Shown in pieces: positions 5,619 through 44,989 of a DNA stretch of 50,985 bases (the first letter of the stretch is position 1; the number at the start of each line of letters is the position of its first letter). Under the pieces are notes generated by a model that saw only the letters and a list, made by a program, of their open reading frames with translations, had not been told where the DNA came from and made no database searches. Source of the stretch: a virus (Duplodnaviria > Heunggongvirae > Uroviricota > Caudoviricetes); the IMG/VR virus record IMGVR_UViG_2721755720_000003, one strand, 5' to 3'. Position numbers and translations under genes: made by a program.

Positions 5619-8600
5619 TCAACGAATACTGATGCCGGAAGCGGCTTTTTTGGTCACAATCACCGTACAGTCGGTGATATTGCCTGCCCCCTGATTGCCT
5701 TTCTGGAAAATCTTAAACTCCAGAGTGACGCTACCACCACCACTAGGCATATCAATAACTGCACTGTAACTACCGGGAATGGCCCCTTTAGTTTCTCTGG
5801 ATGCGATTAATACGCCGTTTTTGCGAACTTCAAAACCATAACCCGTGTATCGCGTGCCTCCTGGGTTATTTCCGCTCCCCGGATCGTCATACGCTATACC
5901 GTTAAAAATAATGGGCGGAATAATAATCTGGCGGTCAAAGTTATGATCATCGCTGATGGTGACTGTAACCGTACCGTTTGGTGTTTCCGTGTTACCCCAC
6001 GTACCGACTTTTTTCGGGAAGGCTTTTGATACAGCTTTAACGAAATCCCCTCTGACCTGGGTCGCCTCCAGCATGCCCTTAATCGTACAGTTCTGGTTAA
6101 TCGTGACATTGTTGAGCGTTCCTGAGTTCGCATTCACACTACCACTGATATCCGCATTTTTAGCGGTCAGCTTTCCGTCTGATGTCAGGGAAAATACCGG
6201 AGGACTGCCACCGCTGGTAATGGTGGGGGCTGTCAGGCGCTTCAGGAACACGTCGTTCATGAATATCTGGTTGCCCTGCGCCACAAACATCGGCGTTTCA
6301 TTCCCGTTTGCCGGGTCAATAAACGCGATACGGTTAGCGGCAACCAGAAACTGGCTCAGCTTGCCTTCCTCCGTGTCCTCCATGCTGAGGCCAATACCCG
6401 CGACATAATGTTTGCCGTCTTTGGTCTGCTCAATTTTGACGCCCCACATGGCATTCCATTTATCGTTAGCGTCCTTCCACTCTTTCGAAAACTCATCCAG
6501 TCTGCTGGCGTTATCCTCCGTCAGATCAACTTTTTCCAGCAACTCCTTGCCGAGATGAGATTCGGTTATCTTGCCTTTGAAAAAATCCAGGTAACCTTCC
6601 GCATCATCGCTCGCCCGACCGACAGCCTCCACGAATGCCGATTTGCCAACGGTGTTCACACTGCGAACGTAAAAATAATAATCATGGCCCGGCCTGATAT
6701 TGATACTGGCAGCTATCCAGTACAGCGCCGTGCCAAGATAGCGGGCTGTGGTTTCAACCTGCCTGATATCAGCAATCCGTTTTTCCGAGAACCAGAACTC
6801 AAACTGTACCGTCGGGTCATAAACCGCAAGATGCGGCGTGGCGGTTATCTGAAAATAGCCCGGTGTCAGCTCAATCCGAGACGGCGCTGCCGGTGCGGCA
6901 ATCCGGAACGATACCGATGCCGGATCGCCCTGCTGTCCCCACGCATTTACCACCCGGACTGTCAGCCTGTAGTTCCCCAGCGCCAGTTGCGTGAAGCGGT
7001 ATGTGGTTTCCGTCGTCCGGGCCGTGCTGACCAGCCGCTCACTGCCGTCATCCGCGGCCACGGTCAGGCGAAGCATAAAGCTCACCCCCTTCACCACCTT
7101 CGGCGTATCCCAGCGCGCCAGCACCTGGTATTCCCCACTGTCTGCGGTGACTTCTGCGGTCAGGTGCTGCACCGCTGGCGGCGTGACACCATTCACCGTG
7201 CCGCTCTGGTCGCCGTCAAAGTGCGCCCCGTTATCCACGATAGCTTCTTTTTCCGGTACATGCTGCACGGCGGTGATGGCATACGTGCCGTCGTCGTTCT
7301 CACGGATACTCACGCAGCGGAACAGGCGCTGGCGCAGCGTCGGCAGCTTCAGCCCCCACACGCTGTATTCAGCAACGCCGTCAGGAACACGGCTCACTTT
7401 CACCTTCACGCCGTCGGTGACGGACTGAACCTCCACGCTGACCGGATTGCCACTTCCGTCAACCAGGCTTATCAGCGTGGTACCGGAGGATGGCAGCGTG
7501 ATTTCACGGTCGAGCGTCAGCGTCCGGGTCTGGCTGTTCACAGCCAGCACGCGCCCGCCGATGCTGATCCCCGCATAGTCATCATCGCAGATTTCAATAA
7601 CATCACCCGGCACATGGCGAAGCCCTTCTGCGCCCACGCTGAAGTCCACGGTCTGCGTTTCCAGCAGCTCCGTTTTAATCAGCCACAGCCCGGCGCGGTG
7701 TGCCTGCCCCCGGCTGGTACAGCCAAAGGCGTCCATCTTCGTGACGTTACGACCGTAACGGAGAATGGCCGGCGTGTCCTCCACAAGCTCTGTCGCCGTC
7801 TCCCAGCCGTTATCCGGGTCAATCCAGTTCACCTCAACGGCATTATGGCGGTCCTTCAGGGCGCTGAAGCTGTAGCGGAACGGCGCGCCATCATCCGGCA
7901 TCACCACATTACTGCGGTTATAGGTCCACACCTTATCCGACGGTCGGTCCTGCACAAACGTCAGCGTCTGCCCGTTCCATACCGGCATACAGCGCATCGC
8001 CGAGCAGAAATCACTGAGCACATCCCACGCCTTACGCTGTGTGGTCAGGTACGCATTACAGGTGATGCGCGGCTCCGTGCCGCCAAAGCCGTCCGGCACT
8101 GACTGGTCGCAGTACTGGCCGATGACATACAGCGCCCATTTATCCACATCCGCCGCACCAAGACGTTTCCCCATGCCGTAGCGCGGATGGGTCAGCATAT
8201 CCCACAGACACCAGGCCATGTTGTTGCTGTATGCCGGTTTAAACGTTCCGTCCCAGATACCGCTGTATTGCCGCGTCTGCGGGTTATAGTTCGACGGCAC
8301 CTGCAGAATACGCCCGCGCAGATGATAATTACGGCTCACCTGCTGGCTGCCGAACTGCTCCGAATCCACCTGCACGCCGACCAGTGCCGTGTTCGGGTAG
8401 CACTGTTTCACATCGATGATTTCGGTGTATGACGACCAGAGCGTTTTGTTCTGCAGCTGGTCTGTGGTGCTGTCCGGCGTCATCCTGCGCATCCGGATAT
8501 TGAACGGGCGCGGCGGCAGGTTACCCACCACCACCGATGCCAGATACTGTGAGGTGGTTTTGCCTTTAATGGTGATGTCTTTTTCCGTCACCCAGCCACC

Positions 8601-26970: not shown

Positions 26971-27838
26971 TTGTCACCCCCATTGATATGCAGGGTGTCT
27001 TCTTCCTGTATTTTTCGTGAAGGATTTTTACTGCAGCGTTGTTCCAGGTGACCTGATGGTGAATGCGTTTATGGCTGGCACCCATCAGTGAGATTTTTAC
27101 GCACGACGGCGCATACATGACGGAGTAAAAACTTTTAACGTAGGTTCCGGAATCCAGATACAGCTCGGTCATTCCGCCGCTGTTTTTCTGCGTCTGTTTC
27201 TGCCCTAACTGGACAGCACCGATCGTCATAAACAATTCACCACAGCGACCGAGATTCGTGTACGTATTCACATCCTCGTTAATGCGCCCCATGAATGAGA
27301 ACGGTCGATCAACCGAACAGATAAAGCTGTTCATTGCCTTGCGTTTCACCCACGAAGCATGGCCGCCATTGTCACCAAGAAAATCCCCGCCCTGCGACAT
27401 AGCGATGGAAAGAGCAGGTATTGATTCGTAGTACGCCAGCATTTCAGAAAGGATCGCATCCAGTTTCCTTATCGGAAAATAGGCCTGGTCATAGTTGCGA
27501 TCCACCCGAAACTGGAACTCGTGATAATCATCATCGAGCTGAATGAAGTATTTACACCCGACCAGTTTTGCCAGGTCGAAACAGGCATTACGGGCGTAAA
27601 AAATTGAGCGGCGGTCACAGAAATTATCGGCTTCGTCAAAACGACTGGCGATATCGGCTTTGGAAAACACCAGCACCTGTTCACCAAATTCAGCCATGTA
27701 CTGATTCCGTGTCTTATCTTCATCATCAACAACGATAAAAATTTTCCCGGTATAGCCAGCACGACGCAACGTCCGGTAAGTCAGAACTTTGTCCGGTCGC
27801 CCGTGAGTCAGAATAAAGGCGCAAAAATCATCACGCAT
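26906..27838 (-). CDS. Putative GT-A-like nucleotide-sugar transferase (DxD motif), function unknown
   Basis: 310 aa; N-terminal beta-strand FILTHGRP…IFIVVDDED and QLDDDY motif; ATG overlaps the ParB-like stop (ATGCGTGA). Confidence 0.45.
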   Translation of the reverse strand: MRDDFCAFILTHGRPDKVLTYRTLRRAGYTGKIFIVVDDEDKTRNQYMAEFGEQVLVFSKADIASRFDEADNFCDRRSIFYARNACFDLAKLVGCKYFIQLDDDYHEFQFRVDRNYDQAYFPIRKLDAILSEMLAYYESIPALSIAMSQGGDFLGDNGGHASWVKRKAMNSFICSVDRPFSFMGRINEDVNTYTNLGRCGELFMTIGAVQLGQKQTQKNSGGMTELYLDSGTYVKSFYSVMYAPSCVKISLMGASHKRIHHQVTWNNAAVKILHEKYRKKTPCISMGVTNDSVFESRVSGSVPDDCTTNR

Positions 27839-41214: not shown

Positions 41215-42003
41215 TTACCCCCTGAAGCCTGGCGGGATCGCACTATCCGGTAACGAGACGGTGTTAACCTGTCGGAGTAACGTCTCAGGTCGAACACCTT
41301 TTGGCGCGAACAAGCCCTGGTATTCATTGGCGATGCTGTGTCGAATCACCTGCTCAGGTGAAAAACCCTGCTGGCGGAATTTTTCCAGCTCCCGTATCGC
41401 CCCGTTAGCGCCCTGCTCCGTTCGAATCGGTTTTCGCAATGCCTGCCTGAACTGAACCCACTCATGCCAGAGTGTTTCCGGCAACCAGTCAGGCAGCTCG
41501 ATAGCCTCCGGTTCGAATTTTTTAGACGCTCGTTTTTGGCGAGGGGGATTTAGGGGGAGATAAGTATTTATATCTTCCTCTTTCTCTTCCTCTGGTAACG
41601 CTTTTTGATCCGTTTTTGTAACGCTGGCAGCGTTACCTTTTCGTTTCAGTTCTCGTATTTTTGTTACTCTCTCGTTTGTAACCGCCCGTTTTTTAGAGCT
41701 TTTCCCGTTATGGCGCTCAAAGTTAGGAAGCGACAACACACCATTAGTTTCGACCAGCCATCCAACCTGAATTAACGCATCAGCAAAACCAGCCATAAAA
41801 GTGATGCGATCTATTGCACTTTTTGTAACGCCGCGAGCGTTACACTCTGCGTTACCGTCTATCATTTGTTGATCCGCCCATGCCCAGAAGCGAATGACTT
41901 TCCCTAATGCGGCATCTGGATCAATATTCAGAATCTCAGCAAGCCTGAATATTTCCGGCTTATCCGGCGTAATAACTTCGAGCTTTATCCAGTTTGAAGC
42001 CAT
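41215..42003 (-). CDS. ydaU: Replication initiation protein (YdaU-like, O-analog)
   Basis: 262 aa immediately upstream of the DnaC-like gene; contains palindromic repeats in its DNA. Confidence 0.65.
   Translation of the reverse strand: MASNWIKLEVITPDKPEIFRLAEILNIDPDAALGKVIRFWAWADQQMIDGNAECNARGVTKSAIDRITFMAGFADALIQVGWLVETNGVLSLPNFERHNGKSSKKRAVTNERVTKIRELKRKGNAASVTKTDQKALPEEEKEEDINTYLPLNPPRQKRASKKFEPEAIELPDWLPETLWHEWVQFRQALRKPIRTEQGANGAIRELEKFRQQGFSPEQVIRHSIANEYQGLFAPKGVRPETLLRQVNTVSLPDSAIPPGFRG
41618..41637. repeat. Palindrome TGTAACGC-N5-GCGTTAC (copy 1, inside ydaU)
   Basis: Perfect 7-bp arms; one of three copies spaced ~200 bp apart. Confidence 0.6.
41824..41844. repeat. Palindrome TGTAACGC-N5-GCGTTACA (copy 2, inside ydaU)
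   Basis: Perfect 7-bp arms; extra GCGTTACC half-site 5 bp downstream. Confidence 0.6.
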
Positions 42004-42015
42004 TTGTTTTCACCT

Positions 42016-42036
42016 TGTAACGCTCGCAGCGTTACA
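42016..42036. repeat. Palindrome TGTAACGC-N5-GCGTTACA (copy 3, just upstream of the ydaU start)
   Basis: Perfect 7-bp arms in the ydaT-ydaU intergenic region. Confidence 0.6.
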
Positions 42037-42080: not shown

Positions 42081-42503
42081 TCAATGCACTACGACAGAAT
42101 CGCTAGGAGAACCGCCGCCGCTGAAATGTGCTTTACGGTAAACGGCCTGGACTGCATCATCATGCGCATCAATTGCCGTACTCAGTGCATCCTGTGCCGC
42201 CAGTAATGCACGGCGTTCCAGGGTATCGAAGATGCAGAGTCGGTGACGCAGCTCGCGAGGAAGAATTGCCAGAACCGCAGGGATCAGTTTCTGAATTTTT
42301 TCCCTTTGCGCATTCGTTTCACCTTTCAACCAACGATGATAGATATTCTGCTGATTGTTCCAGTCCTTGCCTGGTACCAGGGGCAATTCGCCGCCCCCCT
42401 GGCGCAGATATTCTTCAGTAATTGCGTTAGCGACCCACGCCTGCCCTTTTTCGGCTGCCAGGGCTAACAACACTGATTCGATGTGCTCATGCTTGATTTT
42501 CAT
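42081..42503 (-). CDS. ydaT: YdaT-like protein (reported toxic product of the Rac immunity region)
   Basis: 140 aa; directly downstream of the Cro-like gene, same operon. Confidence 0.65.
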   Translation of the reverse strand: MKIKHEHIESVLLALAAEKGQAWVANAITEEYLRQGGGELPLVPGKDWNNQQNIYHRWLKGETNAQREKIQKLIPAVLAILPRELRHRLCIFDTLERRALLAAQDALSTAIDAHDDAVQAVYRKAHFSGGGSPSDSVVVH

Positions 42504-42754
42504 GAATCAACTCCCATCAGCTTTTTCGTAGTAGTTTTATTTCTGCCAATAGTTAAAATTGCATCGGCAGAAAATAATCCGTTTGATGCATGAGCGATTT
42601 TTTCAGCGTAATTTGTTTCGCCGGTATATTCTGTGCGAGGCAATTTTCCGTTATCCATCCATTTGTAGATTGCTCTTTGGCTGACACCACAAACGTCGGC
42701 CACAACAGAAACGCGAACAGTTTTGATTACATCTTCAAGTGTTTTCTGGTTCAT
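42500..42754 (-). CDS. ydaS: Cro-like HTH regulator (YdaS-like)
   Basis: 84 aa from the ATG at 42754 (GAGGGTG RBS); HTH VADVCGVSQRAIYKW; divergent from the repressor gene. Confidence 0.7.
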   Translation of the reverse strand: MNQKTLEDVIKTVRVSVVADVCGVSQRAIYKWMDNGKLPRTEYTGETNYAEKIAHASNGLFSADAILTIGRNKTTTKKLMGVDS

Positions 42755-42833
42755 ATCACCCTCACAATGTGAACTTTGAGTACATGCTATAACAGAACTG
42801 ACAGTACATTCAAGAGCGAATATCATTGAACTT
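42755..42833. promoter_or_regulatory. Divergent promoter/operator region between racR and ydaS (OR-like)
   Basis: 79-bp gap between divergent starts; two AGTACAT repeats at 42779-42785 and 42803-42809. Confidence 0.5.
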
Positions 42834-43253
42834 ATGGTTCATGAAGATAAAGCGCGTAAAGAGTTCGCCAGTAGGCTTGCGCTAGCCTGTGAAAACGCTG
42901 GTTATGAACAACATGGAAGGCAGGCAGAAATTGCCCGTCGAATGAAATTAACACCAAAAGCGGTTAGCAAATGGTTTAATGGTGAAACAATTCCTCGCCG
43001 AGAGAAATTAAGGGAATTAGCAACACTCATTGGAACAACACCAACCTATCTTTTGGGAGAGGATACAGAAGAAAGTGGACAGATACGTTTCTATCAGGAG
43101 TTAAATCCAAGACAAAAAATCATCATTGACCTTCTGGACGAGCTCCCTGACAGTGAGACAGATGAACTTTTAAAAACTCTTGAGGAGAAAAAACAGAAGT
43201 ACAATGCAATTTACGAAGAGTTAGCACGAAAGAAAAAACAAAAAGCCTCTTAA
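42834..43253 (+). CDS. racR: XRE-family HTH repressor (cI-analog, RacR-like)
   Basis: 139 aa; HTH in AEIARRMKLTPKAVSKWFNGE; divergent to the cro-like gene. Confidence 0.6.
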   Translation: MVHEDKARKEFASRLALACENAGYEQHGRQAEIARRMKLTPKAVSKWFNGETIPRREKLRELATLIGTTPTYLLGEDTEESGQIRFYQELNPRQKIIIDLLDELPDSETDELLKTLEEKKQKYNAIYEELARKKKQKAS

Positions 43254-43320
43254 ACCAGCATAAATCCGGTAGCGTCCCCCTCCGGGTTTGTGCTTCACTT
43301 TATCCCGTCTCATTTTTTTA

Positions 43321-43372
43321 TACATAAAATGTACTTAAAGTACTTTACAATGATGAACACAAAGTACATTAT
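43321..43372. promoter_or_regulatory. Operator-like palindrome and half-sites downstream of racR (OL-like, ahead of ydaG)
   Basis: GTACTT-A-AAGTAC perfect palindrome plus ATGTACT and AGTACAT copies and A/T-rich -10-like elements. Confidence 0.4.
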
Positions 43373-43539
43373 ATACCTACCAACCCACCCCGCCCCACAG
43401 AACGCCGGGCAATACTTCGAGTTACCAGGCAGTGGTCAGGGGTTAAGTAGCCAGCCCGAGGCGTATGAACATGACGGCGGGATTCAAATTTTGCAGTGCA
43501 GCAGTTAGTTCCGCCACCCGGCGTTAAGGGGATAGATAA

Positions 43540-43674
43540 GATGGTGCATTACGAAGTAGTTCAGTATTTGATGGATTGTTGCGGTATCACTTACAACCAG
43601 GCTGTGCAGGCTTTACGCAGCAACGACTGGGATCTCTGGCAGGCAGAAGTCGCTATACGTAGCAACAAGATGTG
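43540..43674 (+). CDS. ydaG: YdaG-like small protein (44 aa)
   Basis: AAGGGG RBS; MVHYEVVQYLMDCCGITYNQ…; below the ORF-track cutoff. Confidence 0.55.
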
Positions 43675-43685
43675 AGATTCGCAAA

Positions 43686-43841
43686 ATGCAAAAAATCGAC
43701 CTCGGCAACAACGAATCCCTGGTGTGCGGCGTGTTCCCCAACCAGGATGGAACGTTCACTGCCATGACGTATACCAAAAGCAAAACATTTAAAACCGAAA
43801 CTGGTGCGCGCCGATGGTTGGAGAAGCACACAGTAAGCTAA
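43686..43841 (+). CDS. ydaF: YdaF-like small protein (51 aa)
   Basis: ORF MQKIDLGNNESLVCGVFPNQDG… directly after ydaG. Confidence 0.55.
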   Translation: MQKIDLGNNESLVCGVFPNQDGTFTAMTYTKSKTFKTETGARRWLEKHTVS

Positions 43842-44326
43842 CGATTAAAACGTCTACTCCTGCTGTTCCAGAATAACTTCATAAAATGGGAGTATTTTTC
43901 GGTGACGAGATAATAAGAACAGTTTGCGCTATCACTCTGATGTTGAATGATGCCCTTCCGTTCTAATTTTTTCATAACCGGGTTACGGCAAGGAGAAGTG
44001 ATAATAAGATTTCCTGTTTTAAGGAAATCTTTAAATACAGCGATTTCTTTCTCAGATAAACGAAGCAATACTCGTTGCTCTGGCAGTAATGAATAATGCT
44101 TTTGAATATGTGCTCGCAATCTTGAGAAGGAAATGGCGACCACGAAAGAAAAGGCAAAAACGATAATCTGAAAGAGCCAAGGTATTTCAGTATAAGCATT
44201 GAATGCGACAGTAAACTCTTTCGGTATCAGCCAGAGAGTGAGACCAAAAATGATAATCGTATACATAAGTCTTTCGAGTGGCTCGTTAGCAAAAAGTTTC
44301 AACAATGGAGTAAATACATCCAACAT
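43838..44326 (-). CDS. sieB: Superinfection exclusion protein SieB
   Basis: 162 aa from MLDVFTPLLKLFANEPLERL…; membrane segments. Confidence 0.85.
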   Translation of the reverse strand: MLDVFTPLLKLFANEPLERLMYTIIIFGLTLWLIPKEFTVAFNAYTEIPWLFQIIVFAFSFVVAISFSRLRAHIQKHYSLLPEQRVLLRLSEKEIAVFKDFLKTGNLIITSPCRNPVMKKLERKGIIQHQSDSANCSYYLVTEKYSHFMKLFWNSRSRRFNR

Positions 44327-44767
44327 ATCAATAACTCTCAACTGTAAGGGTATTGAAATGTTAACACAAGCTCTCGCTGTAGGGGTATAGCCGAGACCAC
44401 CGAAGCCCGGAGGTGGTGAAATAAAACCGGGCACAACACGAAGGCGCATTTCCGATATCCATAAAGAGTCGGTCTTGTCTGTTAAATTTAAATGGTGGGA
44501 GTGCGCCTCCGGTTGTAAATAACGACATTGCTGTGTGTAGTCCTGGCGGCATCAGTTTTTTTCTTGAAGTTCGGCTGATGTCCGCCCTTTTTAAAGTGAA
44601 TTTTGTGATGCGGTGAATGCGGCTAAGCGCACGTGGCACAGTTAAAAGTCATGTTAGTCCTTATTGGTTTGGGTGGGAAAGCCGACTGTAATTGTTAACT
44701 GGTTGCAGTCACCTGGAGGCACCAGGCACCGCATCAACAAAGTTCATTTGTAAAAATGGAGATAATT

Positions 44768-44989
44768 ATGATTGCACATCACTTCGGAACTGATGAAATA
44801 CCACGTCAGTGTGTGACTCCTGGCGATTATGTTCTTCATGAAGGCCGGACATATATTGCCTCGGCAAACAATATTAAAAAGCGAAAACTATATATTCGTA
44901 ACCTGACCACAAAAACATGCATTACTGACCGCATGATTAAAGTCTTCCTCGGTCGTAATGGTTTACCTGTAAAGGCGGAGTCATGGTGA
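44768..44989 (+). CDS. kilR: KilR, FtsZ-targeting cell division inhibitor
   Basis: 73 aa [26 protein letters not shown]…. Confidence 0.85.

Follow-up and report, generated by a model that had tools for sequence, protein, structure and literature searches.

In the 50,985-nucleotide IMG/VR virus record IMGVR_UViG_2721755720_000003 (Caudoviricetes; this whole stretch of DNA is hereafter called the window), which carries a Rac-like prophage, the region around the gene in the racR slot is very probably the immunity switch of a lambdoid prophage of the HK022/933W type. Its candidate operators are five copies of a 15-bp inverted repeat, TGWAC-N5-GTWCA. Three of them lie at OR and two at OL, around a gene for a 139-amino-acid (aa) cI-type repressor and a divergent cro-like gene. 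The spacing and sequence of these sites are conserved across nine diverged loci. An original prediction, made from the letters of the DNA, had noted copies of the 7-mer AGTACAT on both sides of the repressor gene and taken them for the OR and OL operators of a cI-like repressor, and this assignment was supported by all of the comparative tests that we ran, as far as sequence comparison can indicate.

Operator repeats around the repressor gene

AGTACAT is present on the plus strand at 42779-42785, 42803-42809, and 43363-43369, and its reverse complement, ATGTACT, at 43329-43335. The first two copies lie, as had been predicted, in the 79-bp gap between the start of the cro-like gene at 42754 (minus strand) and the repressor ATG at 42834, and the same two coding sequences (CDSs) are annotated by RefSeq in an identical genome. 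The ATGTACT and AGTACAT copies reported downstream of the repressor gene were found there as well. The palindrome GTACTT-A-AAGTAC that had been described in this downstream region exists, but it occupies positions 43331-43343, 3 bp to the left of the 43334-43346 originally given. The total number of AGTACAT copies in the window was unremarkable (6 copies, versus 3.97 expected; 23 of 100 shuffles reach 6), and we therefore examined the clustering of the copies and the full palindrome instead. Four of the six copies fall within 620 bp, a density reached in none of 1,000 dinucleotide-preserving shuffles, and the remaining two, at 27696 and 38604, are consistent with chance. Sixty-one other 7-mers likewise reach four copies per 620 bp somewhere in the window.

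Each AGTACAT proved to be the right arm of the 15-bp inverted repeat, with a left arm, GWACT, 3 bp upstream. The 7-mer is thus not the recognition unit that had been proposed but one half-site together with the flanking bases of a 15- to 17-bp inverted repeat, (A)TGWAC-N5-GTWCA(T). The consensus TGWAC-N5-GTWCA was derived independently of the window, from the annotated sites of phage HK022 (GenBank X16093.1), which read TGAACTTATGGTTCA, GGAACTGATAGTACA, TGAACTTATGGTTCA, TGTACTATTGGTACT, and TGAACTTTAAGTACA. Written out as TGWACNNNNNGTWCA, it has three perfect matches in the window, where 0.07 would be expected, and all three are in the immunity region. When one mismatch was allowed, 12 matches were obtained in the window (4.33 expected), of which 5 are in the immunity region, and the window-wide scan revealed that the motif is not equally frequent elsewhere. 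Outside the immunity region, the only near-consensus 17-mer is AGGAACACGTCGTTCAT at 6244-6260, which has one mismatch, lies among tail genes, and is most likely a chance match.

The two sites originally seen in the divergent region are accompanied by a third, so that OR has three; this site, OR3, is centered on the repressor start codon and was overlooked because it has GTTCA instead of GTACA. The centers of the five sites are at 42777, 42801, 42834, 43337, and 43361, which gives distances of 24 bp from OR1 to OR2, 33 bp from OR2 to OR3, and 24 bp from OL2 to OL1 (Table 1). OR1 lies just downstream of the PR -10 hexamer and covers the expected PR start, and OR2 lies between the PR -35 and -10 hexamers and overlaps the -35 hexamer of the predicted repressor promoter. 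The central ATG of OR3 is the repressor start codon, as is the case for the cI ATG in HK022. On the other side of the gene, OL2, which contains the palindrome of the original prediction, abuts or overlaps the PL -35 hexamer, and OL1 lies between the PL -35 and -10 hexamers.

Table 1. Positions of the genes, candidate operators, promoters, and other features of the immunity region in the window
Feature	Positions	Strand	Description and basis
Immunity cassette	42510..43377		cro-like gene, OR, repressor gene, terminator-like hairpin, and OL/PL; blastn versus K-12 Rac, HK022, and Tritos
cro-like gene	42500..42754	-	84 aa; first gene of the rightward operon, followed by ydaT; RefSeq CDS in an identical genome
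OR1	42770..42784		TGAACTTTGAGTACA; perfect consensus match; same position as HK022 annotated oR1
PR (inferred)	42786..42813	-	-35 TTGAAT (42813..42808), 16-bp spacer, -10 TATAGC (42791..42786); in register with HK022 annotated pR TTGACT-16-CATAAT
OR2	42794..42808		AGAACTGACAGTACA; one mismatch; aligns with HK022 oR2 GGAACTGATAGTACA
PRM-like promoter (inferred)	42798..42826	+	CTGACA-17-TATCAT; 10 of 12 consensus positions in the promoter scan; strongest promoter-like match in the region
OR3	42827..42841		TGAACTTATGGTTCA; perfect match; sequence identical to HK022 oR3
Repressor gene	42834..43253	+	139 aa; Pfam HTH_3; cI-type helix-turn-helix N-terminal domain and short all-helical C-terminal domain
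Stem-loop 3' of the repressor stop codon	43257..43294	+	minimum free energy, -19.4 kcal/mol; z = -4.7; 0 of 200 shuffles fold as well
OL2	43330..43344		TGTACTTAAAGTACT; one mismatch; aligns with HK022 promoter-distal annotated oL (OL2) TGTACTATTGGTACT
PL	43344..43372	+	TTTACA-17-CATTAT; promoter-scan hit; equivalent to HK022 annotated pL TTTACA-17-CATCAT
OL1	43354..43368		TGAACACAAAGTACA; perfect match; aligns with HK022 promoter-proximal annotated oL (OL1) TGAACTTTAAGTACA

The same layout of sites was found in phages HK75 and Tritos, Citrobacter phage Omnitron, Salmonella phage S9-5, Klebsiella phage 2b, and two Salmonella prophages (L010 and L011), which encode short-form repressors with 62 to 65% identity to that of the window; in Klebsiella phage 2b, OR was found and the OL pair was not located. 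The spacings are identical to those of the window in HK022, HK75, Tritos, Omnitron, S9-5, L010, and L011. Among 25 distinct sites (50 half-sites), positions -6 to -3 always read G, W, A, and C and the five central bases are nearly free, and all differences between the operators of the window and those of Tritos are in the central five bases. In the Salmonella loci, higBA is inserted after the repressor gene and the OL pair is shifted by 1.3 kb, but it is still located at a TTTACA PL-like promoter; that OL stays with PL despite the insertion is the behavior expected of a functional OL. The inserted genes encode a HigB toxin and a helix-turn-helix (HTH) antitoxin, situated between the short-form repressor gene and OL/PL at 3053-3720 in L010 and 3088-3755 in L011. 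In lambda, rexAB likewise lies between the repressor gene and OL. A parallel insertion, paaA2-parE2, is found in CP-933P (PMC8630535). In L011, the called 151-aa repressor open reading frame (2501-2956) begins 45 nucleotides (nt) upstream of the ATG on which OR3 (2539-2553) is centered, and the OR3-centered ATG, used by all relatives, is more likely to be the true start.

Repressor, Cro-like protein, and proposed switch

The N-terminal domain of the repressor is 46.5% identical to HK022 CI (aa 4 to 102) and 50.7% identical to phi24B/933W-type cI (aa 1 to 73), and its recognition helix, TPKAVSKWFNGE, hardly varies among 11 relatives. Residues K42, S45, K46, W47, and F48 are retained. In the 933W repressor, K42 and K46 have been modeled as base contacts, a K46A substitution abolishes specific binding, and operator mutagenesis has identified half-site positions 2 to 5, G-(A/T)-A-C, as critical (PMC3317979). 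The invariant G-W-A-C half-site of the conserved sites matches these measured base preferences. The gene had been called racR in the original prediction, a name that holds by position only. Compared with K-12 RacR (158 aa), the protein shares 12 of 33 residues within the HTH (36% identity; pairwise E value, 1e-4), and the gene in the racR slot is therefore not a racR orthologue. Over 73 aa, the Cro-like protein shares 62% identity with HK022 Cro (E value, 1e-34), and it is unrelated to YdaS (E value, 0.028).

The 139-aa repressor differs from its long relatives (235 to 240 aa), which carry an S24 peptidase domain and an Ala-Gly cleavage site. No PF00717 hit was obtained for the 139-aa protein, and in an alignment with the long forms the whole S24 domain and the Ala-Gly site are absent. 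In their place is a tail of approximately 55 residues, for which AlphaFold predicts three helices, the last of them 33 residues long (predicted local distance difference test score, 84). Searches with Foldseek, using the repressor model, and against PDB sequences returned generic XRE/cI HTH domains only and did not identify the C-terminal tail; the weak similarities were to SinR and short phage repressors. Short forms of 138 to 151 aa with the same helical tail are present in Salmonella (62 to 65% identity), and the E. coli cluster of the short-form repressor contains 411 member sequences. Tritos, an active phage of strain LF82, encodes a repressor that is 99% identical to that of the window, and the gene is transcribed in the lysogen at 24-fold above background; Tritos has also been plaqued on MG1655, which carries K-12 Rac (PMC9928086). 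The conservation of the short form in both E. coli and Salmonella, and its occurrence in active phages, mark it as a functional variant and not a wreck. An ImmA/IrrE-like protease of Tritos was considered as a possible inducer, and no homologue of it was found in the window.

Under the proposed mechanism, dimers of the 139-aa repressor would bind the five TGWAC-N5-GTWCA repeats via the cI-type HTH, as is suggested by homology. Occupancy of OR1 and OR2 would block PR, which would drive the cro-like gene, ydaT, and the replication genes on the minus strand. In the same way, occupancy of OL1 and OL2 would block PL, the predicted promoter of the plus-strand early operon that includes ydaG, ydaF, kilR, and recE. 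A repressor bound at OR3, over the start of the predicted leaderless repressor transcript, would give negative autoregulation, and the HK022-Cro-like protein would bind the same sites and shut off repressor synthesis during lytic growth.

The PRM-like promoter ends 7 nt ahead of the repressor ATG, before which no Shine-Dalgarno sequence is evident, and a TAnnnT hexamer in the register of its -10 element is kept in HK022, the Klebsiella and Citrobacter phages, and phi24B. The repressor mRNA is thus predicted to be leaderless, as it is for lambda cI and for paaR2 of CP-933P (PMC8630535). The -35 hexamer of PL, TTTACA, is invariant across six phages. Between the two operator regions, the stem-loop that follows the repressor stop codon probably ends the repressor transcript before OL. 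A strict terminator scan of 42400-43900 found none; the hairpin went uncalled because its loop exceeds the 3- to 8-nt limit of the scan and no T-run directly follows it.

A possible but rather doubtful extension of this mechanism is that the 139-aa protein represents a short-form branch of the HK022/933W repressors, in which S24 has been replaced by a compact helical dimerization tail and the five-operator layout has been kept. Lysogeny would then depend on a non-autocleaving repressor, which would have to be inactivated otherwise, for instance by an antirepressor, proteolysis, or dilution. As its recognition helix and operators are close to those of HK022, this common E. coli prophage might also confer cross-immunity to HK022-type phages.

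Weighing of the operator assignment

Although we consider an immunity switch of the HK022/933W type very probable, several points weigh against it. PR, TTGAAT-16-TATAGC, is a weak match to consensus and fell below the threshold of the promoter scan. No match was found at up to two mismatches at the positions equivalent to those of a third OL site (OL3, 53 bp upstream of OL2) or of OFR (beyond cro). The -35 hexamer of the predicted PRM (CTGACA) falls inside OR2, whose center is at about -33 from the ATG, unlike the activating OR2 of lambda at -42, which indicates that either the promoter assignment or the regulatory logic differs. The C-terminal S24 domain of lambda-type repressors is generally held to mediate dimerization and cooperativity, and in a protein without this domain cooperativity and looping may not carry over. 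The 933W repressor, which likewise has three plus two sites, binds them noncooperatively (PMC3317979). Lastly, the support for the operators is comparative throughout, consisting of homology and conservation. Regarding OL3, this site is lacking in 933W too (PMC3317979), so that OL3 and OFR would define HK022 only and not the wider HK022/933W-type family.

The absence from the 139-aa protein of the S24 domain and Ala-Gly site of its 235- to 240-aa relatives, together with the resemblance of the host element to the cryptic Rac prophage, could also mean that the sites are real operators of a switch that is now a relic, with the protein a truncated, nonfunctional remnant of an HK022-type CI and the genes silent or otherwise controlled. 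We consider this improbable, because the short form is a conserved architecture, found in the Salmonella proteins and the large E. coli cluster described above and in a region present to at least 80% in 1,037 genomes, because the plaque-forming phage Tritos has a nearly identical gene that is transcribed in the lysogen, and because the C-terminal domain is predicted to be a well-folded helical one. A slimmer chance still is given to the palindromes being mainly bound by another factor, whether the Cro-like protein alone, the cII analogue YdaT, or a host protein, with the repressor acting elsewhere. Computation cannot assign a site to a protein, and in K-12 Rac a portion of the intergenic region between racR and ydaS is protected by YdaT (PMC11879457). 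However, the YdaT box, TTGATT-N6-AATCAA (PMC9986795), has its perfect copy at 42493-42510, outside the operators; the G-W-A-C half-site fits the base preferences of the 933W repressor (PMC3317979); and the operator type switches together with the repressor/cro cassette, whereas ydaT stays 92.5% identical to that of K-12.

Two further explanations have, in our judgment, close to negligible probability. The direct AGTACAT repeats could be the recognition element of a K-12-type RacR, given that four copies cluster around a gene that occupies the K-12 racR slot; this is contradicted by the protein, which is not a RacR orthologue, by the absence of the mapped RacR operators (PMC9638921) from the cassette, by the pairing of every AGTACAT with an inverted GWACT arm, and by the GTTCA found instead in OR3 and in several homologous sites. 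Equally, an A+T-rich word might cluster by chance in A+T-rich promoter DNA, and the near-expected overall count of the 7-mer and the 61 other 7-mers that reach the same density would agree with this. Against it stand the shuffles, none of which held four copies in 620 bp, the excess of perfect 15-mers (3 versus 0.07 expected), and the conservation of spacing and sequence across nine diverged loci. The operator types of K-12 RacR and of CP-933P PaaR2 were also tried as candidates for the window and were rejected, their sequences being absent.

The exchanged cassette and its relationship to known switches

The gene order of the element is that of a Rac-like prophage, with ydaV, a ydaU-like gene, ydaT, the cro-like gene, the repressor gene, ydaG, ydaF, sieB, kilR, ydaE, a racC-like gene, and recE. 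Many non-K-12 E. coli chromosomes are 100% identical to the window, and at least 80% of the region is present in 1,037 of 5,426 complete E. coli genomes. In blastn comparisons, its flanks match K-12 Rac at 92.5% identity up to position 42509 (through ydaT) and at 99.7% identity from position 43378 (ydaG to recE), and the 868 bp in between, 42510-43377, have no blastn similarity to K-12 Rac. This segment, by contrast with K-12 Rac, is 70 to 80% identical at the DNA level to the imm region of phage HK022 and 96% identical to phage Tritos. It is exchanged as a single block relative to K-12 Rac, its left end at the cro/ydaT junction and its right end directly after the PL -10 hexamer (43377/43378). 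A right boundary directly past the PL -10 hexamer is expected if OL/PL belongs to the specificity unit. The cassette difference between the Rac-like prophages is a classic lambdoid imm-cassette exchange.

The perfect copy of the YdaT box, TTGATT-TTCATG-AATCAA, lies exactly at the left edge of the swapped cassette, and its spacer contains the ydaT start codon (read as CAT on the plus strand). The published site of YdaT, a cII analogue, is TTGATT-N6-AATCAA (PMC9986795, PMC11879457). The box is the sole perfect match in the window, and at up to one mismatch there are three matches, with 0.38 expected. At the right edge, the first gene 3' of PL is a ydaG-like gene at 43541..43675 (plus strand; RefSeq CDS in an identical genome), preceded by a leader of approximately 160 nt. 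This leader, 43378-43540, begins with ACCCACCCCGCCCC, matches K-12 Rac at 99.7% identity, and lies where lambda and HK022 have nutL/putL; it has no Rfam match. In Tritos (L013, 30573-31631, compared with window positions 42480-43532), the cassette common to both at 96% identity has early genes beside it that are Qin-like (dicB and DicF) and not Rac-like, which indicates that the cassette travels as a mosaic module between lambdoid backbones.

Of the known switches, that of HK022 is shared in most detail: the operator consensus, the spacings of 24 and 33 bp at OR and 24 bp at OL, the sequence of OR3 and its placement on the repressor ATG, the PL of the form TTTACA-17-CATyAT, Cro (62% identity), and the repressor N-terminal domain (46%). 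The HK022 immunity region, comprising CI, Cro, OR1-3, OL1-3, and OFR, is said to have been described by Oberto and coworkers in 1989 and by Carlson and Little in 1993. HK022 CI binds cooperatively to adjacent operators and forms OL-OR loops in vivo (PMC8053113, citing Carlson and Little 1993). HK022 differs from the window in having an S24 autocleavage/oligomerization domain in CI, where the repressor of the window has the short helical tail, in having OL3 and OFR, and in its nun/cII/O/P backbone, compared with the Rac-type backbone of the window (ydaT, ydaU, ydaV / ydaG, ydaF, sieB, kilR, recE). With 933W and phi24B, the repressor N-terminal domain is 51% identical and K42 and K46 are conserved; 933W also has five sites, three in OR and two in OL without OL3, and a half-site defined by mutagenesis as nG(A/T)AC(T/C) (PMC3317979). 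In the annotation of 933W/phi24B, the OR sites are 24 and 32 bp apart, and OR3 covers the cI start. Unlike the repressor of the window, that of 933W has an S24 domain and autocleaves, and its outer operator bases are CGTAC instead of TGWAC.

K-12 Rac shares the slot between ydaT and ydaG, with flanks that are 92 to 99% identical, and the divergent repressor and cro-like genes. It also has three palindromes in the racR-ydaS gap, the third of them over the repressor ATG, and two downstream of racR before the ydaG leader, and RacR too is without an S24 domain. The repressor and Cro themselves are unrelated, however, and the published RacR operator is (T/A)TAGGC-n3-GCCTA(T/A) (PMC9638921; the RacR/YdaS/YdaT module is also treated in PMC5700373 and PMC11879457). 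This pattern has five matches in K-12 Rac, at OR and OL, and none in the cassette of the window at up to two mismatches; conversely, HK022-type sites were not found in K-12 Rac. On these grounds, the prophage of the window and K-12 Rac are predicted to be heteroimmune.

The PaaR2/YdaS/YdaT switch of CP-933P in E. coli O157:H7 also belongs to a Rac-like prophage and is lambda-like. Its operators are found at OR and at a promoter resembling PL, its repressor gene is leaderless, as is predicted for that of the window, and its repressor has no S24 domain (PMC8630535). Like the Salmonella relatives, CP-933P has extra toxin-antitoxin genes between the repressor gene and OL. It differs in its GTTTAGTAA-type operator repeat, its four OR palindromes, and its repressor, which is of another family (PMC8630535). 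Lambda itself has in common with the window the divergent PR/PRM arrangement, three OR sites with 24 bp between OR1 and OR2, OL at PL beyond the repressor gene, and a leaderless cI mRNA, which for the window is a prediction. The window differs from lambda in operator sequence, in having two OL sites instead of three, in the 33 bp between OR2 and OR3, in the overlap of OR2 with the predicted PRM -35 hexamer, and in a repressor without a RecA-cleavable domain.

With five sites and three promoters placed, these comparisons provide a precise operator map of an immunity type found in about one-fifth of complete E. coli genomes and also in Tritos, an active phage of LF82, a strain associated with Crohn's disease. 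They indicate that Rac prophages exist in at least three heteroimmune versions, which are of the RacR, PaaR2, and HK022 types. As these repressor/operator sets are mutually exclusive, findings made in K-12 on the essentiality of RacR and on its operators are not transferable to strains with the HK022-type cassette, and an annotation trap, in which the gene in the racR slot is taken for racR, is corrected. The feature is ordinary for the HK022/933W type and makes no conceptual addition to how lambdoid switches function. Its sole unusual point is the 139-aa repressor without a LexA-like cleavage domain.

Two further sets of features were observed in the neighborhood of the cassette. Within and just upstream of the ydaU-like replication-region gene, there are three perfect 19-bp palindromes, GTAACGC-N5-GCGTTAC, at 41618-41636, 41825-41843, and 42017-42035 (0.09 expected). 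The 7-mer GCGTTAC has 17 copies in total, compared with 5 expected, and 8 of them are located in 41595-42035. These palindromes could serve as iterons of an origin, or a replication initiator or regulator could bind them. Between sieB and kilR, two Rfam matches below the gathering score were obtained, one to DicF at 44532-44587 (39.1 bits versus 48) and one to STnc100 at 44589-44775 (35.5 versus 47). In K-12, a small RNA, KilS, is annotated in the region equivalent to 44532-44775.

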